Assembly (NCBI GenBank): GCA_043756405.1
Contig: JAYURC010000123.1
Location: 3,836-67,835, forward strand
DNA: 64,000 nt
Direction of reading: 5' to 3'
Origin: Polaromonas sp.
GTDB taxonomy: Bacteria > Pseudomonadota > Gammaproteobacteria > Burkholderiales > Burkholderiaceae_C
The notes under the pieces are model-generated. The model was not told the DNA's origin, searched no databases, and saw nothing but the letters and a program-made list of their open reading frames with translations. Position 1 is the first letter of the stretch, and every line of letters begins with the position of its first letter. A program made the translations under genes and the position numbers. This document shows positions 46,756-62,047 of the stretch, piece by piece.

Positions 46756-47208
46756 ATGATGGCACTTAAAAACAAAACACTCGCCACCTGGTTGGCGTTT
46801 ATCTTCGGTCAGTTGGGTCTGCACCGCTTTTATCTGTTCGGGCTGAAAGACCTGCTGGGCTGGCTGCACCCGTTACTGGCAGCCATTGGCTGGTACGGCG
46901 TCTACCGCGTTCGCACGCTGGGGCAAGATGACCAATTGGCGTGGCTGCTGGTGCCCATTTTGGGATTTACGCTGGCCGCTACCGCTATCACAGCGATTTA
47001 TTACGGGTTGTCGTCGCTTGAAAAGTGGAACGCCACACACAACCCCCACCAGCCGGATGCGCTGGCAGGGCAAACCAATTGGCTGGTGATTGGTGCGGTA
47101 GTTTTCTCGGTACTGATGGGTGCTACCGCGCTGATGTCCAGCATTGCGTTCAGCTTTCAGCGCTACTTTGAATACCAAATCGAAGAAGCGAAAAAAATAT
47201 CGCAGTAG
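46756..47208 (+). CDS. TM2-domain-like membrane protein
   Basis: 150 aa. The N-terminal TWLAFIFGQLGLHRFYL resembles a TM2 domain, followed by further TM segments. Confidence 0.6.
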   Translation: MMALKNKTLATWLAFIFGQLGLHRFYLFGLKDLLGWLHPLLAAIGWYGVYRVRTLGQDDQLAWLLVPILGFTLAATAITAIYYGLSSLEKWNATHNPHQPDALAGQTNWLVIGAVVFSVLMGATALMSSIAFSFQRYFEYQIEEAKKISQ

Positions 47209-47234: not shown

Positions 47235-49334
47235 TTAGAAGCTGGCTTGTAAGCCCACTTTCAAGCTGCGTCCCGGCAGCGGAGGTGCGTTAGGAAAAGC
47301 AGTCGACGTCAAAATTGACGTGGCACTGTAGGCCAAAGCGTTTGTCAGATTGTCCAAACGCGCATAAAGCAGTGTGCTGACTGGCCCTGCTTTCACCCGG
47401 TAATTGACGCCCGCGTTCCAACGCGTGCTGGCCGCCACAGTTTGGTCGCCAGCCGGAACACGATCTTGAGCTGCCGCGTAATCAAAGCCAATATTGGCAC
47501 CAAACGGGCCACTTGAATATTTCAGTGTGGCTCCCAAACGCATGGGCGTAATGCGGGGCAAGGGCTGCCCCGTCGTCAGGTTGCTTGCCCTGACCATATC
47601 TGCACGCAAGCCCAAATCGAGCGGAGACGCGCCTTCCATCAAGCGGATATTGCCACTCACCTCGAAGCCTGTAAAACGCGCTCGAATCTGCTGGTAGCGA
47701 AACTCGTTGAGCGGATCAAACGCCACACCTGCCTGCGTAAAACCTGGGTTGGCCGGGTCGTCGACCGGGTTCACTTCGCCGTCTTCCTTGTTGCGGGTGA
47801 CGCCAGCAGATTGCACCAAACCAATGTAATTGCTAAAGCGGCTGGTGTAAGCGTTCACGGCAAACGCATGGGCACCGGATTTCCACGCCGCCCCGATATC
47901 GACTTGCAAGGCGCGCTCTTTGTTGAACGATGCGTCGCCCACCTCGTAGGCACGGGTGGCAATGTGCGGGCCATCAGCAAACAGCTCATAGTCGTTGGGC
48001 GCACGCTCGGTATGTGCAAGATTGGTGGTTAATTGCCATGCGGGCGAGACATTCCACAGTGCGCCTAGTGCGTAGCTGTTTGGTTTGAAGTCACGCTTGC
48101 CGGGTACAAATTTGGCCAGCGCCGGGTTGGGGTTGCCCAGTGATTCCACCTTGACTGATTCGACCCGGCCGCCAAAGGTCAACTTGCCCCAATCCGTTTT
48201 GTATTCTTCGTAGGCAAACAAGGCGCTTTGCTGTGTTGTGCTGTATGGCGCAAACGCTTCATCGCCATCGGCTGAAAAGCGCGCGTTATCAAGCTGTACG
48301 CCGACCAGACCTTCAAAACCGCCTAACTTGGCATGGCGCGCTTCTAACCTGAAGTCACTGCCTTTCGTTTTGAAAACGGTACCCACAGCGCCATCGTCAA
48401 ATTCGGTATGGGCATAGTCAGTTTGGCTGTACTGGCCTTTGATGCTTTGAAGAAAACCACCGAGGTTACGAATCTCGCCTTCAAGCGCATAGCGATCCGA
48501 CTTCATGCCAATGGTCACATCTGCTTCTGCCACGGTGCCGTAGTTGCTACGGTAAGTGCTGGCCGATGCGCCCAAATATCCGTTGGCAAACAATAATGAA
48601 CCGCCCACCCCGCTACCATTGACCCGGCTTTGAGAATTGCAAATACGCTGGGCAGTGAATGCACCAGAAGCCTTGTTGCAAGCCATGTCAGCAGGCACGA
48701 CAACATCGCCTGTTTGGCGTTCAAAAGCATCGACATGCAAGGCAAAACGATCCGTCCCGGCTTCTAGCAACACGCCCGTACCGCGTTCACGGTTGCCACT
48801 GGCAAAGCCTGAATCAAGCTTGCCCATTACCCCGCCGTTGCTGTCAAATTGCGCTTCTTTACCGATTCGGTTGTCAATCACATTGACCACACCGCCGATG
48901 GCACTGCCACCGTACTGCAGCGCGCCCGGGCCGCGCAACACCTCGATGCGTTCAATGCTGATCGGGTCTGCGGTGACGGAATGGTCATAACTGAGTGACG
49001 ACACATCCAGCAAGCCGCCGCCATTGTTCAGGATACGAATGCGGTCACCGTCTTGCCCGCGAATGATGGGGCGGCTGGCATTGGGACCAAAGTAGGTGCT
49101 GCTGACGCCAGGGGTGCCGTCAAGCGTTTCGCCCAACGTGGTTTTAGAACGTAATAACAGTCCATCGCCCGAATAACTTGCGCTAGGCGCTATTAAATCT
49201 GAAGCACCCAGGGGGTTGCCGGTGATGGTGACTTCTTTGAGCTGCGGCGTTTGAGCTACGGCGGCTTGCGCGTAAAGCGCGCAGACTGACAGCACCGCCA
49301 GCCGGACGGCACGGTTTGAAAATAATGTTGGCAT
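47235..49334 (-). CDS. TonB-dependent outer-membrane receptor, ZnuD-like
   Basis: Signal peptide, a plug with RPIIRGQDGDRIRILNNGG…SYDHSV…IEVLRGPGALQYG, and a C-terminal beta-barrel ending in F. The start was chosen at MPTLFSN (49334). It is the last gene of the zur-led gene string. Confidence 0.8.
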   Translation of the reverse strand: MPTLFSNRAVRLAVLSVCALYAQAAVAQTPQLKEVTITGNPLGASDLIAPSASYSGDGLLLRSKTTLGETLDGTPGVSSTYFGPNASRPIIRGQDGDRIRILNNGGGLLDVSSLSYDHSVTADPISIERIEVLRGPGALQYGGSAIGGVVNVIDNRIGKEAQFDSNGGVMGKLDSGFASGNRERGTGVLLEAGTDRFALHVDAFERQTGDVVVPADMACNKASGAFTAQRICNSQSRVNGSGVGGSLLFANGYLGASASTYRSNYGTVAEADVTIGMKSDRYALEGEIRNLGGFLQSIKGQYSQTDYAHTEFDDGAVGTVFKTKGSDFRLEARHAKLGGFEGLVGVQLDNARFSADGDEAFAPYSTTQQSALFAYEEYKTDWGKLTFGGRVESVKVESLGNPNPALAKFVPGKRDFKPNSYALGALWNVSPAWQLTTNLAHTERAPNDYELFADGPHIATRAYEVGDASFNKERALQVDIGAAWKSGAHAFAVNAYTSRFSNYIGLVQSAGVTRNKEDGEVNPVDDPANPGFTQAGVAFDPLNEFRYQQIRARFTGFEVSGNIRLMEGASPLDLGLRADMVRASNLTTGQPLPRITPMRLGATLKYSSGPFGANIGFDYAAAQDRVPAGDQTVAASTRWNAGVNYRVKAGPVSTLLYARLDNLTNALAYSATSILTSTAFPNAPPLPGRSLKVGLQASF

Positions 49335-49354
49335 GAATTGACCTGAATGAATCT

Positions 49355-49396
49355 GAAGAAAGCAAAAACCACTCGCTGGCCACACAGGCCAGCGAG
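49355..49396 (-). terminator. Strong hairpin with T-rich tail between the His-rich gene and the TBDR gene
   Basis: CTCGCTGGCC (49372-49381) and GGCCAGCGAG (49387-49396) form a 10-bp perfect stem with a 5-nt loop. On the minus strand it is followed by TGGTTTTTGCTTTCTT. Confidence 0.5.
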
Positions 49397-49421
49397 CAAC
49401 AACAAAGAATGAAAGGGAGAT

Positions 49422-49853
49422 TCAGACGGTCAAAGGTGGGCCGCGCGCGTTAAACAGTGCTGCCCAACGGGCGAGTGCTTCGCCCTGAAAAATCGCCACG
49501 GTTGAAAGTGGCAGAACTACGGGCAATGTCGATAGCATCACCGCTACCAGCCCGCCATCATGGCTGGCCTGGTCATATAAACGGCAATCAGACAAGTCCT
49601 GGTGCGTTGAAAAAAGTAAAGCTAAAAAATGACGAGTTTCAGGCTCCTCGACTTCAGCATGGTCGTGACCATGACCATGACCATGACCATGATCATGATC
49701 ATGATCATGATCCTGCCGAGCATCCTGCGAATGCAGAGCCGAACCCGACGAGCCATGCGTGATGATATGAACCATACCCAGCGTTTGCGTCATCACCAGC
49801 ACAGCCGCCAGCAGCAAAGCGAGCAAGGTCGTGAGGCGAGGCAATACAAACAT
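49422..49853 (-). CDS. Membrane-anchored/secreted His-rich protein (DUF2946-like C-terminus)
   Basis: 143 aa with an N-terminal hydrophobic segment, a DHDHDHDHGHGHGHGHDH tract, and a C-terminal …ARGPP ending reminiscent of DUF2946 proteins found next to metal TBDRs. Confidence 0.6.
   Translation of the reverse strand: MFVLPRLTTLLALLLAAVLVMTQTLGMVHIITHGSSGSALHSQDARQDHDHDHDHGHGHGHGHDHAEVEEPETRHFLALLFSTHQDLSDCRLYDQASHDGGLVAVMLSTLPVVLPLSTVAIFQGEALARWAALFNARGPPLTV
49665..49712. repeat. Hexanucleotide tandem repeat inside the His-rich CDS
   Basis: GTGACC (ATGACC)x3 (ATGATC)x4, eight in-frame 6-bp units encoding (DH)4(GH)4DH on the minus strand. Confidence 0.9.
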
Positions 49854-49873
49854 GCGAAGCAGTCAGAAGATGT

Positions 49874-50407
49874 TTACTTGACGCTGGTAGCGTCCGTCAT
49901 GCGGTAGTACAAACCGTAAGAGTCATCATTCAGCACTGAAAACTTGCCCTCGACAACCACCGGCTCCATGCCGTATTTGACGGGGGTTTTGGTGCGCACC
50001 TCGACCATACTCTCAGGCCCGCCTGCGGTACAAAACGAGCAGGTCAGCGGCACAGACGACAGCAAAAAATGGCGCTGGCTGGTGCCAGGTTCGAGCGGCA
50101 TCATGAAGCCCTGAATGCGCTGGGTTTTCTGGTTCAGCGATGTCTGGCTGGTGCTGAAAACCGGCAAGATGCGATTTTTTTCTACCCTGGTTTTAACATC
50201 GGTCAACACAGACCACGGGATCACGTCATTGCGCGGCTGCAAGGGTGCAAACGGGCTGCCTGCACCGTGCGTGCCCGCACCGGTACCTGCGGCCAGCCCC
50301 GCCGGCGGCGCGCCCAGGGGCGACGACAAAACCTGAGCCGTTGCCGCACTGCCCAGGCAAAGCGCCAGGCCCGCTGCAGTAGCCCATGCTTTAAAACGAT
50401 GCTTCAT
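49874..50407 (-). CDS. DUF3299-like secreted protein
   Basis: 177 aa with a signal peptide, the motif GFMMPLE…HFLLSSVPLTCSFC, and a C-terminal …GLYYRMTDA. An AGGAG ribosome-binding site is present. Confidence 0.65.
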   Translation of the reverse strand: MKHRFKAWATAAGLALCLGSAATAQVLSSPLGAPPAGLAAGTGAGTHGAGSPFAPLQPRNDVIPWSVLTDVKTRVEKNRILPVFSTSQTSLNQKTQRIQGFMMPLEPGTSQRHFLLSSVPLTCSFCTAGGPESMVEVRTKTPVKYGMEPVVVEGKFSVLNDDSYGLYYRMTDATSVK

Positions 50408-50475
50408 TGGGTACTCCTGAAATCGAATGGTCTGCCAGATTTTGCGTCAGTTGTACAGTCAATGCGTTGAAAAAC

Positions 50476-50724
50476 TCAATGCACGTGCTTCATGCCGCAG
50501 TACTTGCCAACAGCCAGGCCTTTGCAGGCCGCTTGCAATTCTTTTTCACACATTTCCAGCTTTTTGCCTGACTCAAGGCATTTGGCAGCGCTTTCATGGG
50601 CGGCTGCCATGGCGCGGTGACGGGTGATGTCTTCTTTAAGCTCTTTGGCGGTGTGGGCTTGCGCAAACACGCTGCCACTGGCAACAAGAGCGAGCGCGGC
50701 AAGAATTGAGGTGTATTTTTTCAT
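50476..50724 (-). CDS. Small secreted helical Cys/His-containing protein (putative periplasmic metal-binding)
   Basis: 82 aa with a signal peptide (…SVFAQA), four Cys, and a His-containing C-terminus (CGMKHVH). An AAGGAA ribosome-binding site is present. I recognise no family. Confidence 0.55.
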   Translation of the reverse strand: MKKYTSILAALALVASGSVFAQAHTAKELKEDITRHRAMAAAHESAAKCLESGKKLEMCEKELQAACKGLAVGKYCGMKHVH

Positions 50725-50738
50725 GATGATTCCTTGAT

Positions 50739-51941
50739 TTAACGGGACTGGAGAAGTTCAAAAACACTGACACGGTAGGCCTCCCACGCGGGCAAAGCGC
50801 TGGCAACCAGCGCCACGCCCAAAGCCAGCACGGGGACGACCATCAGTTCAATCGGCCAGGCAAACGCGCCGATAAAAACAGATTTTTCAGCCTCTAGCGC
50901 CCAGGCAGCGGCGGCCAGCGCGCCCTGCCCCGCCAGCAAGCCTAAAGCACAGGCCAGCACGGCCAGCCACAGCGCTTCACACAGCAGCAGGCCAGCAATT
51001 TTGCGCGGTGGCGCACCCAGCATGCGCAGCAGGGCCAGGTCGGCACGGCGCTCCCGCACGGCGCTCCACAGGGCAATAAAAACGCTTAATCCGGCTGTAA
51101 GCAGCAACACGCCAGCCAGCGCCTTGAGCACATCTGTACCCACACCCATCATGCTGAGCAAACGGGTTATTTCAAGCGCAGGTGCGGCTGCCTGCATCTC
51201 GGTGGCGCTATTGACATAACGCGGAAAAGTAACCGCTGCCAGCGGCGACGTGTATTGAATCAACGCCAGCGTCAGCTCGCGTTCTTCTTCAAGAATTTTT
51301 TGATCCTCGGCGTCCAGTGCGGTGTCTGTTTCATGCACCTTCCAGACCGATTCAGTTGAGGTCAGAATCAGGCGGTCAAGAACTGATCCGCTGGCTGCCA
51401 GCACCCCTACCACCGTGTAGGGCGTTTGCGCATGGCTTTCGCCACCGCCGCCCAGCCCGTGACTGCCGGCAAAGGTGTCGCCTGCCTTGAGCCCGGTTTG
51501 CCGTGCCACCTGGCTGCCCACCACAGCTTGCATCGGTTGGGCCCAGAGCCCGCCGCTACCAAGCTGCGCGCCGTAGTGTTTGATGTAGTCAAGCGACGTA
51601 CCGACGATCCGGAAACCCCGAAAGCTGTCGCCCAGGCTGATGGGAATCACTTTGGCGACCTGCGGGTTTTTAGCCAGCTCTTTGACTGCCGCCAGGGGCA
51701 CATTGCCCGTGGGCGAGTCAATGTGAAACACGCCCGACAAAATCAGCTGCATCGGGCTGCCTTTGGCACCTACCACCACATCAATGCCTGCCAAGTCGCG
51801 CTCAAAGGCTTTGTTGAGCTGGTGACTGGCTAGCATCACCAGCGTGATGGCCGCCAGACCCAGCGTTAGCAACAGCAGGTTGAGGCCAGCAGCCAATGGC
51901 CGTGACCACAGGTAGCGCCATGAAAGCAGAATGGTTTTCAT
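50739..51941 (-). CDS. FtsX/MacB-type ABC transporter permease
   Basis: 400 aa with one N-terminal TM, a large periplasmic domain, and a C-terminal FtsX-like three-TM bundle. It has an ATGA overlap with the upstream ATPase gene. Confidence 0.85.
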   Translation of the reverse strand: MKTILLSWRYLWSRPLAAGLNLLLLTLGLAAITLVMLASHQLNKAFERDLAGIDVVVGAKGSPMQLILSGVFHIDSPTGNVPLAAVKELAKNPQVAKVIPISLGDSFRGFRIVGTSLDYIKHYGAQLGSGGLWAQPMQAVVGSQVARQTGLKAGDTFAGSHGLGGGGESHAQTPYTVVGVLAASGSVLDRLILTSTESVWKVHETDTALDAEDQKILEEERELTLALIQYTSPLAAVTFPRYVNSATEMQAAAPALEITRLLSMMGVGTDVLKALAGVLLLTAGLSVFIALWSAVRERRADLALLRMLGAPPRKIAGLLLCEALWLAVLACALGLLAGQGALAAAAWALEAEKSVFIGAFAWPIELMVVPVLALGVALVASALPAWEAYRVSVFELLQSR

Positions 51942-52654
51942 GCGTGCAAGCTGCCTGTCAAGTTGCTATTATTTTTATAGCTGTTTGCGCCCGTATTAAT
52001 TGGGCTACAGGCCAATTTGATACTGAAAAACGGCTTTGAAATGGCTTCAAACTGCTGTTTTACCCGCGAATCGTGGGTGGCGATTACCAGCGTGGCCTGC
52101 AAGCGCTGCGCGGTCTCGCTTAATAAACTTAAGGCCGCTTGGCAGGCAGCGCTGTCCAGGCTGGCGGTTGGCTCGTCGGCCAATACCACCTGGGGCTGCA
52201 GCAATACCGCACGCGCCAGCGCTACACGCTGCGCCTGCCCGCCCGACAGCTGCGCGGGTTTGCGGTTTGACAGTGCTTGCACACCCAGTGCGGCCAGCGC
52301 ATTGGCAATACGCTGGCTGTCAGTCTTTTGCCCAGCCGCCCATTGCGCCAGCTCCAGGTTGTCATGCACCGTTAACGCGGCGCTTAAATGCAGTTTTTGC
52401 GGCAAAAAGCCAATGGTCCGGGCGCGCCATGCATCGCCGTCAAGCTTGCTCAGTTGGCCCATCACTTGCCCCGCCACTGTCAGCTGCCCACTGCTGGCAG
52501 GCAGCAAACCGGCCGCCATGGCCAACCAGGTTGACTTGCCAGAGCCCGATGCGCCAGTCAGCAGCAACGTTGCACCCTGCGCCACACTGAAGTCAGCAAA
52601 CGCTAACTCCGGCCCATTCGCATAGCGGTAGGTGAGCTGGCGGCAACTGATCAA
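51938..52654 (-). CDS. ABC transporter ATP-binding protein (MacB/LolD-like)
   Basis: Walker A GASGSGKST, signature LSGGQAQRV, Walker B VLADEP. A probable TTG start at 52654 overlaps the zur stop (TTGA). The last ~20 codons run through repeat copy C. Confidence 0.85.
   Translation of the reverse strand: MISCRQLTYRYANGPELAFADFSVAQGATLLLTGASGSGKSTWLAMAAGLLPASSGQLTVAGQVMGQLSKLDGDAWRARTIGFLPQKLHLSAALTVHDNLELAQWAAGQKTDSQRIANALAALGVQALSNRKPAQLSGGQAQRVALARAVLLQPQVVLADEPTASLDSAACQAALSLLSETAQRLQATLVIATHDSRVKQQFEAISKPFFSIKLACSPINTGANSYKNNSNLTGSLHA
51963..52013. repeat. Dispersed ~50-bp repeat, copy C (inside CDS)
   Basis: TTGCTATTATTTTTATAGCTGTTTGCGCCCGTATTAATTGGGCTACAGGCC. By hand, 40 of 50 positions are identical to copy A. 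Confidence 0.7.
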
Positions 52655-53151
52655 ACCGGTGCCCCGGTTGCGCAGTCGGCGCACACACCGCGCACGGCAA
52701 AGTCCATGCTCATGCCCTGGTAGCCAAGTGCTTTGAGCGCTTCAAGCGCCGTTTGGGCGGCACGTTCGAGGTCATTTGCGTTGGCTTGCAGCGCACCCGA
52801 CAAAGGGCTGTCTTTGTGGCAGCTCTGGCATTCAAAGTGCGGAATGGCATGTATTTCAGCCGGCATGGCCTGGTAGCGGCGGGTGCGGCTGGCGTCTACC
52901 CGGCACAGCAACAGGCCAACTTGCGTCAAGCGGTCAATCAGGCGGTAAAGCGTCACGCGGTCAAGGTCGCCCGACTCAGCCTGCCTGTCGTCAGCTAGCG
53001 CCGCCTGCAACTGCGCATGGGTGTAGCTGGTGTCAGCGTGCGCCAGCAAAAAGCCCAGCACCAAGCGCGCGGCGCTGGTACGGCGAAGACCGTGGGCAGT
53101 AAGCAAGTCGTTGATGGGGTCAATCATTAAGGTGGTTGGCGAGGTCTGCAT
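52651..53151 (-). CDS. zur: Fur-family metalloregulator, probable Zur
   Basis: 166 aa with a winged-helix N-terminus (RRTSAARLVLGFLL…) and two CxxC pairs (FECQSC, GVCADC). The context is COG0523 genes plus metal transporters. Confidence 0.7.
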   Translation of the reverse strand: MQTSPTTLMIDPINDLLTAHGLRRTSAARLVLGFLLAHADTSYTHAQLQAALADDRQAESGDLDRVTLYRLIDRLTQVGLLLCRVDASRTRRYQAMPAEIHAIPHFECQSCHKDSPLSGALQANANDLERAAQTALEALKALGYQGMSMDFAVRGVCADCATGAPV

Positions 53152-53200: not shown

Positions 53201-53241
53201 TGCAATTCAGTTGCATTACAATTTAGTGCAATCAGGTTGCA
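53201..53241. promoter_or_regulatory. Three overlapping palindromes in the zur/COG0523 divergent region (candidate Zur operator)
   Basis: TGCAATTCAGTTGCA (53201-53215), TTGCATTACAATTTAGTGCAA (53211-53231) and TGCAATCAGGTTGCA (53227-53241). All are built from TGCAA/TTGCA arms. The site is centred between the two divergent start codons. Confidence 0.5.
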
Positions 53242-53286: not shown

Positions 53287-54534
53287 ATGACAAAAAAAAA
53301 CACTCGCTTGCCTGTCACCGTCTTGTCCGGCTTTCTGGGCGCGGGTAAAACCACCTTGCTTAACCACATTTTGGCCAACCGTGAAGGCCTGCGCGTAGCG
53401 GTCATCGTGAACGATATGAGCGAGGTCAATATCGACGCGTCGCTGGTCGATAAAAACGCAACAAATGCGGGGGCTGCACTGTCGCGCACTGAAGAAAAAA
53501 TGGTCGAAATGAGCAATGGCTGCATTTGCTGCTCACTGCGCGAGGACTTGCTGCTGGAAGTGCGCAAGCTGGCAGCTGAAGGCCGGTTTGATTGCCTGCT
53601 GATTGAGTCAACCGGCATAGGTGAACCATTGCCCGTAGCAGCCACATTTGACTTCTGCGATGAAGAAGGCAACAGCCTGAATGATGTGGCCGCCATAGAC
53701 ACGATGGTGACGGTGGTCGATGCTTTCAATTTGCTTAATGACTACAGCAGCAAAGATTTGCTGGCGCACCGGGGGCAAGTAGCAGGCGACGAAGACAACC
53801 GCACACTTGCTGCGCTGCTCATGGAGCAGATTGAATTTGCCGACGTCATTGTGGTTAACAAAATTGACCGGGTCGACATAGCAAGGCGCAATGAAGTTAC
53901 GGGCGTTATCAAGGCATTGAACCCAACGGCTGAAATTGTGTACGCCGAGCACGGCCGCGTACCACTGGCCAAGGTGCTGGCCACTGGCAAATTTGACATG
54001 GAAAAAGCCGCTGCCATGCCTGGCTGGGCACGCGAACTTGAAGGCCATCACACCCCTGAAACCGAGGCTTACGGTATCAGCAGCTTTGTTCTGCGCAGCC
54101 ACGACCCACTGCACCCCAAGCGTTTTTCAGAATTTATGGAGCTGCCGCTGCCCGGCCTGCTGCGTGCCAAAGGGTACGTGTGGCTGGCCAGCAAGCCTGA
54201 GTGGGTAGTGTCGTACTCGCGTGCCGGCAACACCGCCACGCACGAACCCGTGGGCCGCTGGTGGGCACACCAGAGCGACAAAAGCCGCTGGCCACCCAAG
54301 GGCGACCCGCAGCGTGATGCGATTGATGCGCGGTGGAAAGAACCATACGGCGACCGTTTGAATGAAGTCGTTTTTATTGGCCAGAACATGGACCGAGCCT
54401 TAATTGAAGCCGCATGGAAAGCCACCCACCTGACATATACCGAAACCCGGAAGGGTATGAAAGGTTGGCGGGATTTAGCCGACCCGTTTCCAAATTGGGC
54501 CGCAACGCCTGTGCTGGAAGCTGAGCCTGCCTGA
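53287..54534 (+). CDS. COG0523 GTPase metallochaperone (ZigA-like long form)
   Basis: 415 aa with P-loop GFLGAGKTT, metal motif [10 protein letters not shown], and a CobW C-terminal domain. Confidence 0.85.
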
Positions 54535-54570
54535 TTGCCATTGATTGCTAACTTAACCACGGGAAATCAG

Positions 54571-54948
54571 ATGAAAGTTGCTTACGTCTTTGCCACCAGT
54601 ATGGCTTCAACCTTTAAATTGGCGACCATGATCCTGCCGCAGCTTGAACGTGGAAATCACGGCGCAGGTGTGGCGGGCATGATGTTTTTCGATGACAACA
54701 TTTTCTGCCTTCGGCAAGGCGATCCCGTCGGTGAACGGCTGGCTAAAGTTGCCGAAGACCAGGGTATCTTGCTGATGGTGTGCGACCAGTGTGCTGTGAG
54801 GCGAAATCTGGCAGACGGCACGTACGAGCAGTGCGGCACCGGACAGGTCGTGGCACGGGGCCTGGTTAAAGGCGTCGTGGCAGGCTGCTTTCCGCAGCTG
54901 TACGGCGCACTGGCAGCCAGCCCGCCCAACTATGTCATCAGCTTGTAG
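54571..54948 (+). CDS. DsrE/DsrF-like family protein
   Basis: 125 aa starting MKVAYVFATS…, with an alpha/beta DsrE-like pattern and a CDQC motif. The ATG at 54571 is preferred. Confidence 0.6.
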   Translation: MKVAYVFATSMASTFKLATMILPQLERGNHGAGVAGMMFFDDNIFCLRQGDPVGERLAKVAEDQGILLMVCDQCAVRRNLADGTYEQCGTGQVVARGLVKGVVAGCFPQLYGALAASPPNYVISL

Positions 54949-55172
54949 ATCGCACCCTTCCAGACGGGTGCTTGATCAAACCGCTTTGCATGGTCACCGA
55001 AATTCTGGTTTGTGTACGTTGTCGCTCGCCCGGCGCATCGGCAGATCATCCAGGAGAAGGTCAGGCGCGAATGGAATCATGTCATGCGAATCGCGGCCCG
55101 CGTGTCTGCGGGCTGACACTTTGGCGCGAAACCCTGTGTTGAATCAACAGCAACTGTGAACAGGAACTACCT

Positions 55173-56162
55173 ATGAGCCTCATCCCCGTCACCATCCTTA
55201 CTGGCTTTCTAGGCAGCGGTAAGACCACGCTGCTCAACCGCATTTTGAAAGCTGATCACGGCTACAAAATTGCGGTCATTGAAAACGAATTTGGCGAAGC
55301 TGGTATCGATAACGAACTGCTGGTGCAAGACCGTGATGAACAAATCATCGAAATGAACAACGGCTGCATTTGTTGCACAGTGCGCGGCGATCTGGTGCGC
55401 ATTTTGTCTGAGCTGGCGTTAAAAAGAAAATTAGGCGTACTTAGCTTTGATCATGTGGTGATTGAAACCACAGGTCTTGCAGACCCGGCACCTGTGGCGC
55501 AAACATTTTTTGTGGACGAAGCTGTTCAGATGAACTACCTGCTGGACGCCATCGTTACGCTGGTGGATGCCGTACACGCACCGCAGCAACTCGACGCGCA
55601 TCATGAAGCACAGGAGCAAGTCGGTTTTGCGGATCGTATCCTGATCAGCAAGACTGACCTGGTTGATACACCCACGCTGGCTGCCTTGCGCCAACGCCTG
55701 GGCCGCATCAACCCGCGCGCAAAAATCGGCGTCGCCCATCACGGCGTTGCAGCGAAAGACGATCTTATGGACGTTCGCGGCTTTAACCTAAGCGCCATTC
55801 TGGACATTGAACCCGAATTTTTAACAGATGTTGACCATGAGCACGATGACGATGTGACTTCGTTTGTGTTTCGTGAAGACCGCGCACTTGATCTGGAGCG
55901 CGTCGAAGACTTTCTGGGCGGGATGATTCAGGTCTACGGCCCGCAAATGATGCGCTACAAGGGCGTGCTCAACATCAAAGGCGAAACCCAGCGGGTGGTA
56001 TTTCAGGGCGTACACATGCTGATGGGCGCTGAGCGTGCAGGCCAATGGCAGGCCGGAGAAAAACGGTCTTCAAAGATGGTATTTATTGGGCGTGATTTGC
56101 CCAAAAAGTTGTTACTGGATGGTCTGGCTGGCTGTGCAGTAGCAGCCAAATCCGCCAACTAG
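55173..56162 (+). CDS. COG0523 GTPase metallochaperone (CobW/YjiA-like short form)
   Basis: 329 aa with P-loop GFLGSGKTT, GCICCTVRGD, and an acidic/His linker DVDHEHDDDV. Confidence 0.85.
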   Translation: MSLIPVTILTGFLGSGKTTLLNRILKADHGYKIAVIENEFGEAGIDNELLVQDRDEQIIEMNNGCICCTVRGDLVRILSELALKRKLGVLSFDHVVIETTGLADPAPVAQTFFVDEAVQMNYLLDAIVTLVDAVHAPQQLDAHHEAQEQVGFADRILISKTDLVDTPTLAALRQRLGRINPRAKIGVAHHGVAAKDDLMDVRGFNLSAILDIEPEFLTDVDHEHDDDVTSFVFREDRALDLERVEDFLGGMIQVYGPQMMRYKGVLNIKGETQRVVFQGVHMLMGAERAGQWQAGEKRSSKMVFIGRDLPKKLLLDGLAGCAVAAKSAN

Positions 56163-56186
56163 ATTACTCAAAAACCAGGTACACCC

Positions 56187-56891
56187 ATGTTGCAAGCAAG
56201 TCATTTAAGCAAAAACTTTGGCGACGTACGCGCACTCGACGCAGTCAGCCTGTCAGTCGCACCAGGGGACATTTATTGTCTGCTGGGTGCCAACGGCGCG
56301 GGCAAAACCACGCTCATCAATGTGTTTCTCAACTTTTTGCAGCCCACATCGGGCATAGCAGCTGTCAATGGCTGCGACGTTACTACCGATCCGCTTCAAA
56401 CCAAACGCGACATTGCCTACATCCCTGAACAGGTCATGCTGTACGGCGTATTGTCGGGTCTGGAGAACCTGGACTACTTTGCCACGCTTGCAACAGGTAC
56501 GAAGCAAAACAAACAACAGCTGCTCAAGTTACTTACAAATGTAGGACTGGACGAATTGGCTACCGCACGACGGGTTGCCACTTATTCCAAAGGCATGCGA
56601 CAAAAAGTAGGGATCGCCATCGCCATGGCTAAAAATGCCAAAGCGTTATTACTTGACGAGCCAACATCCGGCCTGGACCCATCCGCCGCCAACGAGTTTT
56701 CGCATTTGCTGAAGAAAGCCAGCCAACGAGGGGTTGCCGTTCTCACCACGACCCATGACCTGTTTCATGCCAAGCAAACAGCGAGTCGTATCGGCATCAT
56801 GAAGCGCGGCCAGATGGTGGCAGAGCTCAGCAGCGCAGACATCACGCACACCGACCTTGAAGCGCTGTACCTGCAGCACATGAGGTCGTGA
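56187..56891 (+). CDS. ABC-2-type exporter ATP-binding protein
   Basis: Walker A GANGAGKTT, signature YSKGMRQKV, Walker B LLLDEPTSGLD. Confidence 0.85.
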   Translation: MLQASHLSKNFGDVRALDAVSLSVAPGDIYCLLGANGAGKTTLINVFLNFLQPTSGIAAVNGCDVTTDPLQTKRDIAYIPEQVMLYGVLSGLENLDYFATLATGTKQNKQQLLKLLTNVGLDELATARRVATYSKGMRQKVGIAIAMAKNAKALLLDEPTSGLDPSAANEFSHLLKKASQRGVAVLTTTHDLFHAKQTASRIGIMKRGQMVAELSSADITHTDLEALYLQHMRS

Positions 56892-58312
56892 CCATGAATC
56901 AACTTAGCCGATTTGCCACGCTGCTGTGGATCGCACGCAAAGACTTTAAAGAATACCTGCGCGATGGCCGCCTGCATTGGGCGGGGGGCATGGTACTGGT
57001 TTTGATGTTGACGGCGCTGGCTGTGGGCTGGCAAAACCAGCGCGCCATCAGCGGTGAACGAACCGTTGCACAAAAGCTTGATTACAAAGATTGGGTGAGC
57101 CAAAACACGCGCCACCCGCATGACGCAGCGCACCAGGGCATGCATGTCTTCAAGCCTGAACCGCCGCTGTCGGTGATCGACCCAGGCATCACGCCGTATG
57201 TTGGATCAACCTTGTGGTTGCAGGCGCACCGACAAAGCGAAGTTAAATTTCGCCCGGCACAAGATGCCACCGGCTTACAGCGGCTGGGGCAACTCAGCGC
57301 TGCGTGGGTGCTGCAGGTACTAGGGCCGCTGCTGATTGTGGTGCTGGGATTTAATTCGTTTGCGGGTGAGCGTGAGAGCGGCACACTTCGGCAAACCTTG
57401 AGTTTGGGCATCACGCCACGTCAGCTGCTGTGGGGCAAGGCGCTTGGCCTGGGCGCTTGCCTGGCAGTGCTGCTGATACCTGCCGGATTGGCCACACTGG
57501 TTGCCAGCTTATGGGGACTAGAGCCGTCACTACAGGCTGACGCCGCCTGGCGGTTGTTGGGCTTGAGCTTGGGATACGCCGTGTATTTGCTGATTGCAGT
57601 GTTTGTGGTGCTGGCCGTATCAGGCTGGGCACGCAACGCACGCATTTCACTTGTTGTGTTGCTAGGACTCTGGATTGTCGGCACGCTGATGGTGCCGCGC
57701 GCCGCTTCAGACCTAGCGCGTACGCTCAACCCCAGCCCCACACGACTGGCATTCAGCCAAAAAATGAATGCTGACCTAGGAGCAAGTTACCAGCAGGCGT
57801 GGAAGGAGAAGTTGGGCTCTGACAAGCGCTGGGGTGCCGATGTTCCGCTGAACAAATGGGGCATTGCCTTGCAGATAGACGACCAGGCAGGTTATGGTGT
57901 GACTGACAAGCATTTTGGCCGCCTGTGGGACGCTTTTGAAGAGCAGCAGCGCAGCCAGGTTTGGGCCGGTCTGGTTGTGCCCTTGCTCGCGCTGCGGTCC
58001 TACTCAATGGGCATGGCGAGTACCGACTTTGCCAATCACCGGGATTTTTCGGTCGCAGCAGAGCAGCACCGCCGTTTAATGCAAGACCTGATGAGCGCCG
58101 ACTTGGTCAAACACGCAGACAAATTGCACAACCAGCACTTTGCTTACCAGGCCGATGCAAAACTGTGGGCTACCGTGCCGCGCTTCAGTTATCAGTTACC
58201 TAGCGCTGGCGTGTCGTTTCAAAACAATCTTGCAAGCCTTCTGGTTCTGCTAGCCGTGTTGGCAGCAAGCATTCAGGTAGCGCGTGTGGCTTGTACGCGC
58301 CCTTTGCAGTAA
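56888..58312 (+). CDS. ABC-2 permease, DUF3526-like
   Basis: 474 aa. It overlaps the ATPase stop. It has an N-terminal TM, a large extracytoplasmic segment, an ABC-2 TM bundle (…FAGERESGTLRQTL…), and a C-terminal extra domain plus TM. Confidence 0.7.
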   Translation: MTMNQLSRFATLLWIARKDFKEYLRDGRLHWAGGMVLVLMLTALAVGWQNQRAISGERTVAQKLDYKDWVSQNTRHPHDAAHQGMHVFKPEPPLSVIDPGITPYVGSTLWLQAHRQSEVKFRPAQDATGLQRLGQLSAAWVLQVLGPLLIVVLGFNSFAGERESGTLRQTLSLGITPRQLLWGKALGLGACLAVLLIPAGLATLVASLWGLEPSLQADAAWRLLGLSLGYAVYLLIAVFVVLAVSGWARNARISLVVLLGLWIVGTLMVPRAASDLARTLNPSPTRLAFSQKMNADLGASYQQAWKEKLGSDKRWGADVPLNKWGIALQIDDQAGYGVTDKHFGRLWDAFEEQQRSQVWAGLVVPLLALRSYSMGMASTDFANHRDFSVAAEQHRRLMQDLMSADLVKHADKLHNQHFAYQADAKLWATVPRFSYQLPSAGVSFQNNLASLLVLLAVLAASIQVARVACTRPLQ

Positions 58313-58319
58313 AGGTTTT

Positions 58320-59792
58320 ATGCGCACATTTCTAACCTCATGGCAGCTTTTTTGTACGGTATTCAAGCACGAAGGCAAGGTACTTTTTGCAGACCGAACG
58401 CTGTGGCTGGTGGGCGGCTTGCTTTCAGCACTGTTGGCATACGCGCTTGTAAATGGCATGCAACATACGCAGGCACGCACAGACGCTGCGTCGGTAGTGT
58501 TAAAGCGCCAGGCTGATCAACAGGTCAGCAATCTTGACCTGCTCAACCGCATGATGGCTGGCAAGGCCACACCTGAGCCGTTTGCCAACCCGGCTGACCC
58601 GGCGTCGGTGGGCAGCGGTATGGGCGGGCGCTACGCCGTGTTGCCGACGACGGTGTTGGCTCCCGTAGCTGTTGGTCAGTCAGACATGTTCAGCCACTAC
58701 TACCAGGTGACTTACCGCAGCAAGCTCAATTTCATGTACGACAGTGAAATTGAAAACCCCTGGAACCTGCTGTCGGGGCATTTCGACTTGGCCTTTGTCG
58801 TGGTTTACCTGTTGCCTCTGCTGATTTTTGCATTGAGCTACAACCTGCTGTCTGCCGAGCGTGAACAAGGCACGCTGCGCATGCTGTTGTCGCAACCGCT
58901 GGGCTTGCCCGTTTTGGTTACAGCCAAGCTGGCTGTGCGCGCTACGGCTGTAATTGGTATCGCTGTTATGTTGCCACTGCTGATATTGACTCTGCACCGG
59001 CCAGAAGTCCGGCAAATGGCAGCACTGCCCTTGCTCTTGACCTGGTCAAGCCTGGTGGCCAGCTATGCGCTGTTCTGGTTTGTTCTTTGCGCAGCTGTCA
59101 ACGCCATCGGACGGTCATCGGCAGCCAACGCACTGATGCTGATTGGTGGCTGGGTCGTGTTGGTGTTGGTGGTACCCGTGCTGCTTAATCTGGTGGTGGG
59201 GCTGGTCAGCCCCGCTCCATCGCGTACAGAGCTAGCCACAAGTACACGGCTGATCACGATTGAAGGCCTGAACCGCTATAACAAACTGCTCAGCACCGAC
59301 TATCGTTACATCGACAAACCAGAAGTACTGATACCCAAAAACGGCAAGATCGAAGTCCCTCCGCGCAGGCAGGGCGCGTACATGTTGCAACGCGACGTAG
59401 ACAAGGCGATACAGCCAGTGCTGGACCAGTTTGATGCCCAACTCGCGGAGCAACAGGCGCTGGTCGAGCGTTTCGGCTTTCTGTCACCAGCCATCGTGGC
59501 GCATGAAGGCATGGCCGCGCTGGCGGGCAATGGGTCACGCCGCTACCTGGAGTTTCAAAGCCAGGTCAGTAATTTTCATGCGTTATGGAAGCAGTTTTTT
59601 GAACCTCGCATGTTGACGGGTACAGCGATTGTTGAAGCTGACTTTGAACGCATGCCCCGCTTTGAATGGCAAGAAGCACCTGCCAGTGACCTGCGTGCTG
59701 ACAGTTTGCTGCGACTGGTACAGCTGCTAGCCTTGACATTGTTGCTGGCCGGATCTACCGCCTGGCGCCTACGCCGCTACCCGGTTGTTTAA
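58320..59792 (+). CDS. ABC-2 permease, DUF3526-like (paralogue)
   Basis: ~490 aa with the same architecture (…LSAEREQGTLRMLL…). The start was chosen at MRTFLTS. Confidence 0.7.
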   Translation: MRTFLTSWQLFCTVFKHEGKVLFADRTLWLVGGLLSALLAYALVNGMQHTQARTDAASVVLKRQADQQVSNLDLLNRMMAGKATPEPFANPADPASVGSGMGGRYAVLPTTVLAPVAVGQSDMFSHYYQVTYRSKLNFMYDSEIENPWNLLSGHFDLAFVVVYLLPLLIFALSYNLLSAEREQGTLRMLLSQPLGLPVLVTAKLAVRATAVIGIAVMLPLLILTLHRPEVRQMAALPLLLTWSSLVASYALFWFVLCAAVNAIGRSSAANALMLIGGWVVLVLVVPVLLNLVVGLVSPAPSRTELATSTRLITIEGLNRYNKLLSTDYRYIDKPEVLIPKNGKIEVPPRRQGAYMLQRDVDKAIQPVLDQFDAQLAEQQALVERFGFLSPAIVAHEGMAALAGNGSRRYLEFQSQVSNFHALWKQFFEPRMLTGTAIVEADFERMPRFEWQEAPASDLRADSLLRLVQLLALTLLLAGSTAWRLRRYPVV

Positions 59793-59835
59793 ATTTTTTC
59801 TGTTTTCTTTTTTTACTCATACCTAAAAATTACCT

Positions 59836-62028
59836 ATGAAACTTCAAAAACTATCGCTCGTCATGGTGGGTGTACAAGCCCTTCTGCTGGCCACGGCTGT
59901 GCAGTCACAAACCACGTTGAAACAAGTCGATGTGCGCGAAAGCCAGCAAGACCTGTCGCCCAACCTGACTGAAAAAACCGGGGCTGCTTCGCGACTGGGT
60001 TTGAGCATCAAAGACACGCCTGCATCGGTGGATGTCATCACGCAGGAGCAAATGGAGCAGCGCGGTGCGCGTACCTTTGAAGAAGCGCTGCGCGGTGGCG
60101 TTGGCATGTCTGCAGGCGGCAACCCGGGTTCGCCATCGATTGGGTCAACACGCGGTTTTACCGGCGGTTTTATTTCGTACCTGTATGACGGCAGCCGTAT
60201 CTCCAGCGCAGGCATGGCCAGCCGCCCGCAAGATACTTTTAACTACGAGCGCATTGCGATACTGAAAGGACCAGCTTCGGTGCTGTACGGCGAGGGCGCC
60301 ATTGGCGGTGTGGTCAATTTTGTGACCAAACGGCCTGACCGCAACAACCCGTCAAAAGAAGCGATGATTTCTTATGGCAGTTTCAACACCCTGCGCGCAG
60401 GTGCTGGTCTCGGCGTGAACATCGGTCAGGACAGCGCCCTGCGGGTTGACTTTAGCCACATGCAAACTGATGGCCACATTGAGCGCAACAAACAGCGATT
60501 GAACAACCTGACGCTAGGCTTTGCAACCAGGCTGGCGCGTGATGTGAAGCTTGATTTGTCGGTGGACTACCTGAGCGACAGCGCATCGTCGTACTGGGGC
60601 AGCGTGCTGGTGCCCGCCACCTTTGCACTTCAGCCAACGAGTGCAGTCACAGACTCTGCAGGCCGCGTCATTGACCGCCGCCTTGCCTTTAAAAACTACA
60701 ACGTTGACGATGGCATCATGCGCAACGACAGTCTGTGGACACGCGCCAAGCTGCAATGGGACATAAACCCCGACTGGACATTGCGCAACGAACTGTCGTA
60801 CTACACCGCAGACAGGCTGTGGCGCAATTCTGAAACCTACAGCTTTGCTGCGCCTAATCTGCTGAACCGCAGCCTGACTAGCATTAGCCATGACCACCAG
60901 GTGCTCAGTAACCGGCTGGACTTGACCAACACCAGCAGCATTGGCGGCATAAAAAACAAGTTTGTTGCCGGTCTGGAATACACCAGCACCACCTTTAGCA
61001 GCGAGCGGCGCTTTTCAAATGGCTCAGCCGCCACCAATGCAGCGTTAAGGGTAGATATTTTGAATCCGGTTTACGGCAATTACAGCGAAAACCCCGCGTT
61101 TTTTACTGGCGCTGGTAACCGGACCAATTTCGCCACCGAAATTCCGGTGTTGTCGCTGTTTGCTGAAGATGCGTTATCTGTCACTGACAAGTTGACCTTG
61201 GTGGCAGGCATACGCATCGACTCAGGCGAAATTGAACGCAAAAATTTTGACCTGAATACCAACGCTACAACAGCGTTTAGCCAAAGCTACAACGCCACAT
61301 CAACACGCCTGGGTGCTGTTTATGCATTTGACAAAGACAGTTCTGTGTATGCCCAGTACACCGACGCTGTTGCCCCGGTTGGCGGCAGCAATTTGCTATT
61401 GCTGTCAGCAATCAATTCTGCCTTCAAGTTATCCAAGGGCGTACAGACTGAAATTGGCTTCAAGCAATCGGCACTCGGTGGCCAGCTTGATTACACGGTA
61501 TCGGTTTACAGCATCAAGCTGTCCAACATTTTGTCGCGCGACACGACCTTGCCTGCCTTGGTGGTCAATACCGGTTCGCAGTCCTCTAACGGTGTTGAGC
61601 TGGCTGCGGCCTGGCGCGCCACCAGACAGTTGAGCGTGAGCGGCAACTACGCACGTGTTAACGCAAAGTTTGACAGTCTGCTGGAGGCGGGCGGCGTGTC
61701 CCGCGCGGGCAACAAGCCTCCCAACGTGCCCAACGTGGTGGCCAACCTGTGGGTGGACTACAAACTCAGCAATTCACCCCTCAAGGTTGGCATGGGTCTG
61801 AACCGCACTGGCGAAGCCTTCACGGGTAACGACAACCGGGTCAAGCTCAATGCCCGCACCACGGCAGATGCCTACGCCAACTGGGACTTCAAACCAGGTG
61901 TCGTCAGCGTTCGGGTGCGCAACCTGACTAACAAACTGTATGCAACATGGGGTGGCTCAAGTGCTGCCAATCAGGTAATGGTTGCCGCACCGCGCAGTGT
62001 GGATGTCAGTTACCGGGTTGCTTTTTAA
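59836..62028 (+). CDS. TonB-dependent siderophore-type receptor
   Basis: 730 aa with a signal peptide, a plug (DTPASVDVITQEQMEQRG…ILKGPASVLYGEGAIGGVVNFVTKRP), and a barrel ending in YRVAF. Confidence 0.85.
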   Translation: MKLQKLSLVMVGVQALLLATAVQSQTTLKQVDVRESQQDLSPNLTEKTGAASRLGLSIKDTPASVDVITQEQMEQRGARTFEEALRGGVGMSAGGNPGSPSIGSTRGFTGGFISYLYDGSRISSAGMASRPQDTFNYERIAILKGPASVLYGEGAIGGVVNFVTKRPDRNNPSKEAMISYGSFNTLRAGAGLGVNIGQDSALRVDFSHMQTDGHIERNKQRLNNLTLGFATRLARDVKLDLSVDYLSDSASSYWGSVLVPATFALQPTSAVTDSAGRVIDRRLAFKNYNVDDGIMRNDSLWTRAKLQWDINPDWTLRNELSYYTADRLWRNSETYSFAAPNLLNRSLTSISHDHQVLSNRLDLTNTSSIGGIKNKFVAGLEYTSTTFSSERRFSNGSAATNAALRVDILNPVYGNYSENPAFFTGAGNRTNFATEIPVLSLFAEDALSVTDKLTLVAGIRIDSGEIERKNFDLNTNATTAFSQSYNATSTRLGAVYAFDKDSSVYAQYTDAVAPVGGSNLLLLSAINSAFKLSKGVQTEIGFKQSALGGQLDYTVSVYSIKLSNILSRDTTLPALVVNTGSQSSNGVELAAAWRATRQLSVSGNYARVNAKFDSLLEAGGVSRAGNKPPNVPNVVANLWVDYKLSNSPLKVGMGLNRTGEAFTGNDNRVKLNARTTADAYANWDFKPGVVSVRVRNLTNKLYATWGGSSAANQVMVAAPRSVDVSYRVAF

Positions 62029-62047
62029 GAACGGTTAGTCGCGCCCC

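Follow-up and report, generated by a model that had tools for sequence, protein, structure and literature searches.

We analysed a 64-kb stretch of Polaromonas sp. DNA (hereafter the window) and, within it, a string of seven minus-strand open reading frames (ORFs). The source is a Polaromonas-like betaproteobacterium of the Comamonadaceae. The string begins with a gene for a Zur-like regulator of the Fur family, continues with genes for an ATP-binding cassette (ABC) ATPase, its permease and two small exported proteins, and ends with a gene for a ZnuD-like TonB-dependent receptor (Table 1). The ORF directly before the receptor gene, 143 amino acids (aa) long and carrying (DH/GH)n repeats, is our main subject. 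It probably encodes an arrest-peptide leader that switches on the receptor, and the string as a whole would then be a zinc-starvation operon of two modules. Residue numbers of this ORF refer to the window protein.

The ORF listing and our reading of the sequence agreed with the layout given by an earlier sequence-only reading of this DNA, namely seven ORFs on the minus strand with two overlaps and four gaps of 14, 68, 20 and 87 nucleotides (nt). The TTG start of the ATPase gene shares bases with the TGA stop of the regulator gene (TTTGA), and the ATPase and permease genes meet in an ATGA overlap. For the receptor, we took the ATG at 49334 as the start codon rather than a GTG further upstream.

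Table 1. Positions of the genes, peptide motifs and nucleic acid elements in the window (MFE, minimum free energy)
Feature	Position	Strand	Remarks
Fur-family regulator, Zur-like, 166 aa	52651-53151	-	two conserved CxxC pairs
ABC ATPase, LolD/MacB/FtsE type	51938-52654	-	ABC_tran match
MacB-type permease, 400 aa	50739-51941	-	periplasmic core domain and C-terminal FtsX domain
82-aa exported Cys4/His protein	50476-50724	-	no Pfam or NCBIfam family
DUF3299-like exported protein, 177 aa	49874-50407	-	at the ZrgE/PA4066 position; borderline Pfam match
143-aa (DH/GH)n putative leader ORF	49422-49853	-	arrest-type C-terminal motif, homologue conservation
N-terminal signal/anchor helix, ending in HxxxH	HxxxH 49769-49755	-	within the 143-aa ORF
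Hypervariable His-rich tract	49733-49656	-	within the 143-aa ORF
DCRLYDQ motif	49589-49569	-	within the 143-aa ORF
RGPP, then three codons and TGA	49445-49434	-	residues 137-140 of 143
P1, 5' strand, TTGACCGTCTGAATCT	49418..49433	-	Leu-Thr-Val codons, TGA stop, ATCT; paired in the MFE fold
Hairpin P2, 14-bp stem (8 G-C), 5-nt loop, then TTTTTGCTTTC	49368..49400	-	terminator-like, nested in P1
P1, 3' strand, AGATTCATTCAGGTCAA	49338..49354	-	holds the receptor Shine-Dalgarno-like AGG; ends 3 nt before the ATG
ZnuD-like TonB-dependent receptor, 699 aa	47235-49334	-	plug and barrel domains
Two 15-bp perfect palindromes, TGCAATTCAGTTGCA (53201-53215) and TGCAATCAGGTTGCA (53227-53241)	53201..53241	.	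candidate Zur operators, zur/zigA divergent promoter region
zigA, COG0523 zinc metallochaperone GTPase	53287..54534	+	NF038288 E 3e-171, 570 bits, just below the 600-bit cutoff; divergent, same operator region

Conservation was counted in 80 species-level genome loci that were recovered using the permease, with smaller denominators for the individual features. Given its recurrence among these loci, the arrangement is not due to chance. The 82-aa gene directly follows the permease gene in 72 of 74 loci, and a zur-like gene adjoins the core in 49 of 68. The 143-aa gene and the receptor gene follow the DUF3299 gene in 36 of 58 loci; in the other 22 the leader-receptor pair is missing. A metagenome scan with the 143-aa family returned many leader-receptor pairs without the ABC core. 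Because the pair travels together without this core, the 143-aa gene appears to belong functionally with the receptor, and the string looks like a zinc-starvation operon made of two separable modules (zur-ABC-p82-DUF3299, where p82 is the 82-aa protein, and leader-receptor). The same two observations contradict the earlier proposal that the seven genes form one complete envelope-spanning zinc machine.

Each leader homologue with sufficient downstream sequence was followed by a receptor 55-77% identical to that of the window, whether or not an ABC core was present. The stand-alone pairs lay 20-45 nt downstream of msrA and next to a divergently oriented TetR gene (for example, L116, 5376-8523, and L156, 1940-8562). 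Locus L156 carries two tandem leader-receptor units, the first receptor of which is of the haem/haemoglobin type, and in locus L080 msrA also stands in front of the whole ABC operon.

For the window receptor, the best NCBIfam family was ZnuD (NF038289, E 2.8e-86), although its 290.7 bits lie far below the curated cutoff of 950. The best PDB match was ZnuD of N. meningitidis (4rdr, E 3.6e-54), with the next match at 1e-8. Neisseria ZnuD is a zinc receptor, and the two proteins share a zinc-regulon setting. Their likeness is greatest in the plug and the N-terminal part of the barrel. On these scores, the window receptor is classed as ZnuD-like and not as a certified ZnuD.

The 143-aa ORF and the RNA that follows it

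All 48 genome homologues of the 143-aa ORF end in R[G/A]PP, three further residues and the stop codon. The family has a single invariant Cys, which is located within a D-C-R-L/V-Y/F-D-Q motif, and in all 48 homologues the spacing from this Cys to the Arg is 47 residues. A profile search yielded 964 representative clusters of the leader family (E<=1e-3, clustered at 50% identity). Among the best 150 representatives, R[G/A]PP was present in 146 and the three-residue tail in 134. The Cys-to-Arg spacing among 145 representatives was 47 residues in 123, 46 in 16 and 48 in 5. Over 40 diverse members, the invariant residues were His29, His33, Phe81, Cys90, Asp94, Arg129, Ala136, Arg137, Pro139 and Pro140. 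Each of them is encoded by two to four synonymous codons, indicating selection at the peptide level. The His-rich tract upstream of the Cys varies freely among homologues in both length and sequence. The AlphaFold model was confident for the hydrophobic N-terminal helix only (residues 4-33), and the predicted local distance difference test (pLDDT) score was about 50 for the rest. We regard His29, His33, His84, Cys90 and Asp94 as candidate metal ligands (a His3/Cys/Asp set).

Two family assignments were tried and rejected. As a homologue of ZrgA/PA4063, the 143-aa protein gave E 0.065 with the Pfam ZrgA profile and E 0.18 with the PA4063 structure in the PDB, both through the His-rich tract. 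As a member of DUF2946 (PF11162), it gave E 0.0023 and 19.1 bits against a cutoff of 23.7, over the N-terminal part only. The metal motif of DUF2946 leaders (CXXC/CXXXC) is not present in the 143-aa family. The other sequence features of leaders of the CruR/CutF type were found, comprising a RAPP-like C-terminal motif, a fixed spacing to the metal motif, an export signal and a regulatory spacer before a metal gene. Judged by these features, the 143-aa gene most likely works like an arrest-peptide leader of the CruR/CutF type, and we do not file it as a DUF2946 member.

The best comparison is with CruR (Bp2923)-BfrG of Bordetella pertussis, in which an exported DUF2946 upstream ORF has a CXXC motif and a RAPP motif three residues from its end, and Rho-dependent termination is involved (PMC9426467). 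In both systems a small exported protein is encoded directly 5' of a TonB-dependent transporter, R-A/G-P-P stands three residues before the stop, and the ligand motif lies at a fixed distance from it (45 intervening residues in CruR and 43-46 in the window, depending on the counting). The logic, off with metal present, would suit an uptake receptor. The window family differs from CruR in having one Cys and several invariant His residues instead of CXXC, and RGPP instead of RAPP. It also falls under the Pfam DUF2946 threshold, and its gene is internal to an operon. The intergenic region is about 50-90 nt long and structured in the window system, with a helix that sequesters the ribosome-binding site (RBS), whereas that of CruR is long, unstructured and Rho-dependent. 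Finally, the receptor is ZnuD-like and stands in a Zur/zinc context, not a copper one. Of the RAPP-like motifs tested in a 2025 study, RGPP gave the most stable arrest (PMC12992588).

A second comparison is with CutF-CutO of Rhodobacter capsulatus, where the leader is also a DUF2946 protein and the stall is copper-induced (10.1101/2025.02.05.636593). A stalled ribosome that frees a downstream RBS is the principle of both CutF and SecM-SecA, and the proposed leader would share it. CutF has CXXXC and PPP, and its copper-induced stall switches on a detoxifying oxidase. The target in the window is an uptake receptor, so metal would be expected to relieve the stall, unlike in CutF. SecM differs again, in that it monitors secretion. 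A further difference from both is that the 5' strand of the stem in the window leader consists of its own tail codons and stop codon.

The 87-nt spacer between the leader and the receptor folds into two nested helices, P1 and P2 (MFE z = -3.64; 0 of 200 shuffles as stable). The strands of P1 were complementary in 90 distinct units from both locus sets (genome and metagenome). Native duplexes had a mean energy of -16.1 kcal/mol, compared with -12.4 when a strand was given a non-native partner and -5.6 after shuffling. To count covariation, 54 distinct sequences were aligned without gaps, with the stop codon and the GATTCA motif as anchors. P1 pairing was found in 81.9% of cells, compared with 16-39% when the partner was slid. 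Double-sided changes numbered 53, against 20.6 after shuffling, and none of 500 shuffles gave more. The core TGAATC::GATTCA does not vary, and compensatory changes occur in the pairs on either side of it. Changes in the tail codons are matched by changes in the Shine-Dalgarno region, as TTTTT::AAAAA, CTCGC::GCGAG, CTCGT::ACGAG and CTTCC::GTGAAG.

P2 was the top terminator-like site in a terminator scan of the region, and a hairpin stands at its position in nearly all related loci, with differing sequences. In a structure-blind alignment, P2 pairing reached 87%, compared with 71% in shuffles (0 of 500) and 32-50% with the partner slid. The MFE z-score of the whole intergenic region was modest (median -1.6, against -0.8 for a coding control); this measure is too crude, and the covariation counts were used instead. 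An Rfam scan of the region gave nothing significant.

These helices bear on whether control would be translational or transcriptional. Under transcription attenuation, P2 would serve as an intrinsic terminator, or Rho would enter, as in CruR, at the C-rich stretch that follows the stop codon, and the position of the ribosome on the leader would decide readthrough. CruR itself uses Rho-dependent termination (PMC9426467), and P2 has the attributes that such a scheme calls for, being the strongest terminator-like site in the region, followed by TTTTTGCTTTC, and conserved with compensatory changes. The T-run is mediocre in many relatives, however (median 4-5 T in the 10 nt past the stem), and P2 begins 11-24 nt past the stop, outside the footprint of a ribosome stalled at RGPP. 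The covarying pairing of tail codons with the Shine-Dalgarno region would also be left unexplained. We consider attenuation rather doubtful as the explanation of the leader; it is not mutually exclusive with RBS unmasking. P2 as a plain operon-internal terminator was rejected because this leaves P1 unexplained, and was kept as a possible extra layer.

The same data speak to the role of the peptide itself. It could be a periplasmic or membrane zinc chaperone, functionally analogous to ZrgA/PA4063, which would pass zinc from the receptor to the ABC system, with all seven products acting as one zinc acquisition machine. The tight packing of the genes would fit such a machine, as would the His-rich tract and the export signal of the 143-aa protein; the cluster has no ZrgA, which leaves the role vacant, and Zrg function in V. 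cholerae depends on ZrgA (PMC9820375). Yet no part of the protein is less conserved than the His-rich tract, and it is the arrest-type motif at the C terminus and its spacing that are invariant instead. The tail residues vary, and their codons covary with the receptor RBS. Moreover, the gene goes with the receptor and not with the ABC core, the protein has no confident fold past its first helix, and it lacks homology to ZrgA. A chaperone role in a single machine is thus unlikely in our view. If the leader reading holds, it would correct an easy annotation error, in that small His-rich ORFs in zinc clusters need not be metallochaperones.

In the RBS-unmasking model that we prefer, Zur would derepress the operon at low zinc. 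A ribosome on the leader would stall at RGPP, its P site holding Pro139 and its A site Pro140, and would sit over the three tail codons and the stop codon (about +6 to +15 nt). With the tail codons covered, P1, which P2 would otherwise clamp, could not form, the receptor RBS would be free, and the ZnuD-like receptor would be translated from it. Returning metal, most likely Zn(II), would bind the nascent chain through His29/His33/His84/Cys90/Asp94 and release the arrest. In the stalled complex, about 49 residues would separate Cys90 from the peptidyl-transferase centre, placing this Cys immediately beyond the exit tunnel. Once the arrest is released, the ribosome would terminate and P1 and P2 would re-form. 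Receptor synthesis would then cease before the reloading of Zur is complete, and termination at P2 might contribute. The operon would thereby have two layers of control, Zur and the leader. A ribosome stalled in this manner would account for the three-codons-then-stop rule, the near-universal TGA-ATC and the poorly conserved tail residues. Nilsson et al. reportedly observed in 2015, with engineered constructs, that SecM arrest is released when a small domain folds in a zinc-dependent manner at the exit of the tunnel.

Regulator, operator and the sensed metal

A profile of regulator homologues gave full-length alignments with Fur/Zur/PerR structures, of which 7dh7 was the best (E 1.1e-7), and neither CxxC pair varies among the homologues. 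The regulator is Zur-like, and we infer its zinc specificity from the context. The palindrome TGCAAYNNNRTTGCA occurs in two copies spaced 26 nt apart, with no further exact copy in the 64-kb window. Of 56 related loci, about 50 carry 1-3 copies of the palindrome YGCAAYNNNRTTGCR 5' of the regulator gene. Such conservation makes it a good phylogenetic footprint of a putative operator, and the neighbouring genes suggest a Zur box bound by the regulator. The gene identities and the zinc context proposed by the sequence-only reading held up on four counts: the Fur-family profile match, the conserved palindrome, the presence of zigA and a second COG0523 gene, and the kinship of the permease with the Aeromonas zrg permease.

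The ZnuD likeness of the receptor, the Zur context and the ligand set all point to zinc as the metal sensed by the leader. Another metal (Cu, Co, Ni or Fe/haem) could be what the cluster, the leader or both respond to, with the regulator as a Fur-family paralogue of other specificity. The regulator is indeed a divergent Fur-family member, known leaders of the DUF2946 type sense copper, stand-alone leader-receptor pairs occur without a zinc context, and at one locus a leader paralogue stands before a haem-type receptor. Against this, the genes for ZigA, a second COG0523 protein and the ZnuD-like receptor are gathered around one operator region, and a core of DUF3299 and MacB-type genes beside folE and COG0523 is a typical Zur-regulon signature. 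The leader has also lost the CXXC typical of Cu(I) and has the His3/Cys/Asp set and His-rich tracts instead. A response to another metal is accordingly improbable, given the company that these genes keep.

Several observations weigh against a zinc-relieved arrest leader under Zur control. Copper relieves the stall in CruR and induces it in CutF, so that the sign of the response is unreadable from sequence. Unlike that of CruR, the leader gene does not come first in its transcription unit; P2 and the T-run after it could terminate transcription, which would make the control transcriptional; and the Shine-Dalgarno-like elements are weak (AGG, GAG). Only 5 of 39 members of the leader family matched Pfam DUF2946 (best E 1.6e-3), and hhalign of the family against one Aeromonas DUF2946-like ORF gave a probability of 0.4%. 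Given these two results, the likeness to CruR and CutF may be convergent rather than a sign of homology. As for the zinc setting, the regulator as a single sequence is under the Pfam FUR cutoff (E 0.0078). About 17 of 68 core loci have neither a zur-like gene in front of the ABC operon nor the palindrome within 700 nt; they include L003, L004, L006, L013, L029, L055, L059, L062, L065, L070, L077 and L079. No Zur-type palindromes were found upstream of the stand-alone leader-receptor pairs, and zinc is not implied there.

Metal-sensing arrest peptides have so far been documented for copper only (CruR, CutF), and a literature search found no zinc-linked DUF2946 leader and no upstream-ORF control of ZnuD. 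The leader family is unannotated and not captured by Pfam; as a class, RAPP/RGPP upstream ORFs before TonB receptor genes have already been noted and are enriched there (PMC12992588). We tentatively put forward that the 143-aa family, which is large (about 1000 clusters at 50% identity), may consist of metal sensors that act as nascent peptides and be distinct from DUF2946. It may likewise hold the first zinc-responsive arrest peptide, which would gate ZnuD-type receptors by RBS unmasking, in series with cytoplasmic Zur sensing in Polaromonas. If this is true, nascent-chain metal sensing would be a general design, here with other ligands, with RGPP as the strongest arrest motif known, and with a simple RNA switch backed by covariation. 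Such a leader would explain the tuning of ZnuD-type zinc receptors beyond Zur, and would offer structural biology a natural case of arrest being released by metal that binds close to the ribosome exit tunnel.

The ABC core and its relation to Zrg-type clusters

The ATPase matched ABC_tran (E 2e-30), with LolD, DevA, FtsE and MacB as its best NCBIfam families. The permease matched FtsX (E 5e-15, residues 275-392) and MacB_PCD (E 2e-11, residues 19-199), and was 32% identical over its full length to the permease of the canonical Aeromonas zrgA-B-C-E cluster (E 2e-46). The window thus has the split MacB-type ABC system of the Zrg/PA4063-PA4066 cluster, with a separate ATPase and a permease matching both MacB_PCD and FtsX. 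None of the seven products matched PF10986 (ZrgA/PA4063, formerly DUF2796) at E<=0.01. A membrane-fusion (HlyD/MacA) adaptor was likewise not matched among the seven products, nor was one seen among the flanking genes scanned. As no adaptor or TolC-like gene is present, a pump of the MacAB-TolC type is unlikely.

The DUF3299-like protein gave E 2.7e-4 and 21.5 bits with Pfam DUF3299, for which the cutoff is 22. All 32 homologues tested matched the same family, if weakly (best E 1.2e-6). With Aeromonas ZrgE there was a local pairwise match only (E 0.002), and neither the sequence nor its profile matched a PDB chain, that of PA4066 (4hsp) included. The protein is probably a very diverged relative of ZrgE.

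The likeness to the Zrg/PA4063-66 cluster comprises a probable Zur link, a separate ATPase with a MacB/FtsX-type permease, and a downstream periplasmic protein that is probably of the DUF3299 type. The sequence-only reading had noted a resemblance to PA4063-PA4066 of P. aeruginosa; it stands for these three proteins and falls for the His-rich protein, which had been taken as the PA4063/ZrgA counterpart and gave the E-values reported above. The window cluster differs in several respects. It has no gene for ZrgA/PA4063 (PF10986), and its DUF3299 member is very diverged. An unrelated 82-aa protein is encoded between the permease and the DUF3299 gene, and the regulator gene comes first in the operon. 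Finally, a leader and a ZnuD-like receptor are added in about 60% of relatives. Read from sequence, the first module is probably an autoregulated, Zur-type-repressed, diverged relative of Zrg/PA4063-66 without ZrgA, with p82 between the permease and the DUF3299 gene instead. The cluster as a whole is a variation on this theme joined to a ZnuD-type receptor, and the leader is the more interesting result.

The MacB architecture of the permease raises the question of transport direction, since we know of no MacB-type transporter that imports across the inner membrane. The core could export a metallophore or a metal-metallophore complex, and the ZnuD-like receptor would then retrieve the loaded compound. 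However, no metallophore biosynthesis, adaptor or TolC-like gene was found in the string or among the divergent genes scanned, the receptor module is facultative, and the closest structure to the receptor, Neisseria ZnuD, is a zinc receptor. Published work is divided on Zrg-type transport. The genetics of V. cholerae indicate zinc uptake by Zrg (PMC9820375), and in P. aeruginosa PA4064/65 have been proposed as an exporter of cobalt-pyochelin (PMC11481552). On balance, an exporter seems to us an unlikely role for the window core. The earlier remark that the mechanism of this cluster type is unresolved is partly outdated, given the export proposed for PA4064/65 (PMC11481552) and the requirement for ZrgA in V. 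cholerae (PMC9820375).

The 82-aa protein has four invariant Cys, conserved H36, H43, H80 and H82, and a C-terminal CGMKHxH motif. It matched no Pfam or NCBIfam family, and about 4001 homologues were found, none of them annotated. The AlphaFold model is a two-helix hairpin (pLDDT 71), for which Foldseek found no match in the PDB at E<=0.001. A helical resemblance to CsoR/FrmR was not significant and was dropped. For the 82-aa, 143-aa and DUF3299-like proteins, sequence searches of the PDB returned chance or low-complexity matches only. The Cys4/His domain is duplicated in tandem in the 136-aa proteins P0244, P0245, P0288 and P0293, suggesting an autonomous small periplasmic domain.

Locus L162 (Chondrinema litorale plasmid NZ_CP111051.1, 1-6774), from the Bacteroidota, encodes an ABC ATPase, folE, a Fur-like repressor, a permease 43% identical to that of the window and a DUF3299 gene. 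Its divergent genes encode MerC, a COG0523 protein, an ABC ATPase and a TonB receptor. With neither the 82-aa gene nor the leader, it presents the minimal conserved core. If our reading holds, a system of the Zrg/PA4063-66 type would reduce to ATPase, permease and DUF3299 protein, with ZrgA or the 82-aa protein as lineage-specific add-ons, and the search for its mechanism would be narrowed.

In Aeromonas caviae (L161, NZ_AP026896.1, 2190-2560), a 104-aa DUF2946-like ORF lies directly 5' of canonical zrgA-zrgB-zrgC-zrgE. It has a signal peptide, a CTLC motif and RAPP near its end, and matches Pfam with E 8e-4. Pairing is predicted between its final codons, stop included, and the Shine-Dalgarno element and start codon of zrgA (z -2.4). 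From this one example, Zrg genes may be under leader control in gammaproteobacteria, and such control may extend to zinc-uptake genes more widely.

At the 3' end of the window ATPase gene (51938-52040), an A+T-rich stretch encodes a C-terminal extension of about 35 residues (…ACSPINTGANSYKNNSNLTGSLHA). The tblastn alignments to relatives end before this extension, which appears to be variable.

The operon divergent from the string (53287-63595, plus strand) contains, in order, zigA and genes for an SaoD/DsrE-like protein, the second COG0523 GTPase, an ABC-2 ATPase, two unannotated permeases (474 and 502 aa), a siderophore-type TonB receptor (59836-62028) and two last ORFs without a family. It resembles the znuGHI/znuK zinc cluster of Caulobacter (PMC4176598). 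On the other side, convergent to the receptor gene and beside a GNAT gene, a 150-aa membrane protein with no NCBIfam match is encoded on the plus strand (46756-47208). This flank is conserved in Polaromonas loci, which places the zinc cluster at a fixed chromosomal site near rpsP-rimM-trmD-rplS.

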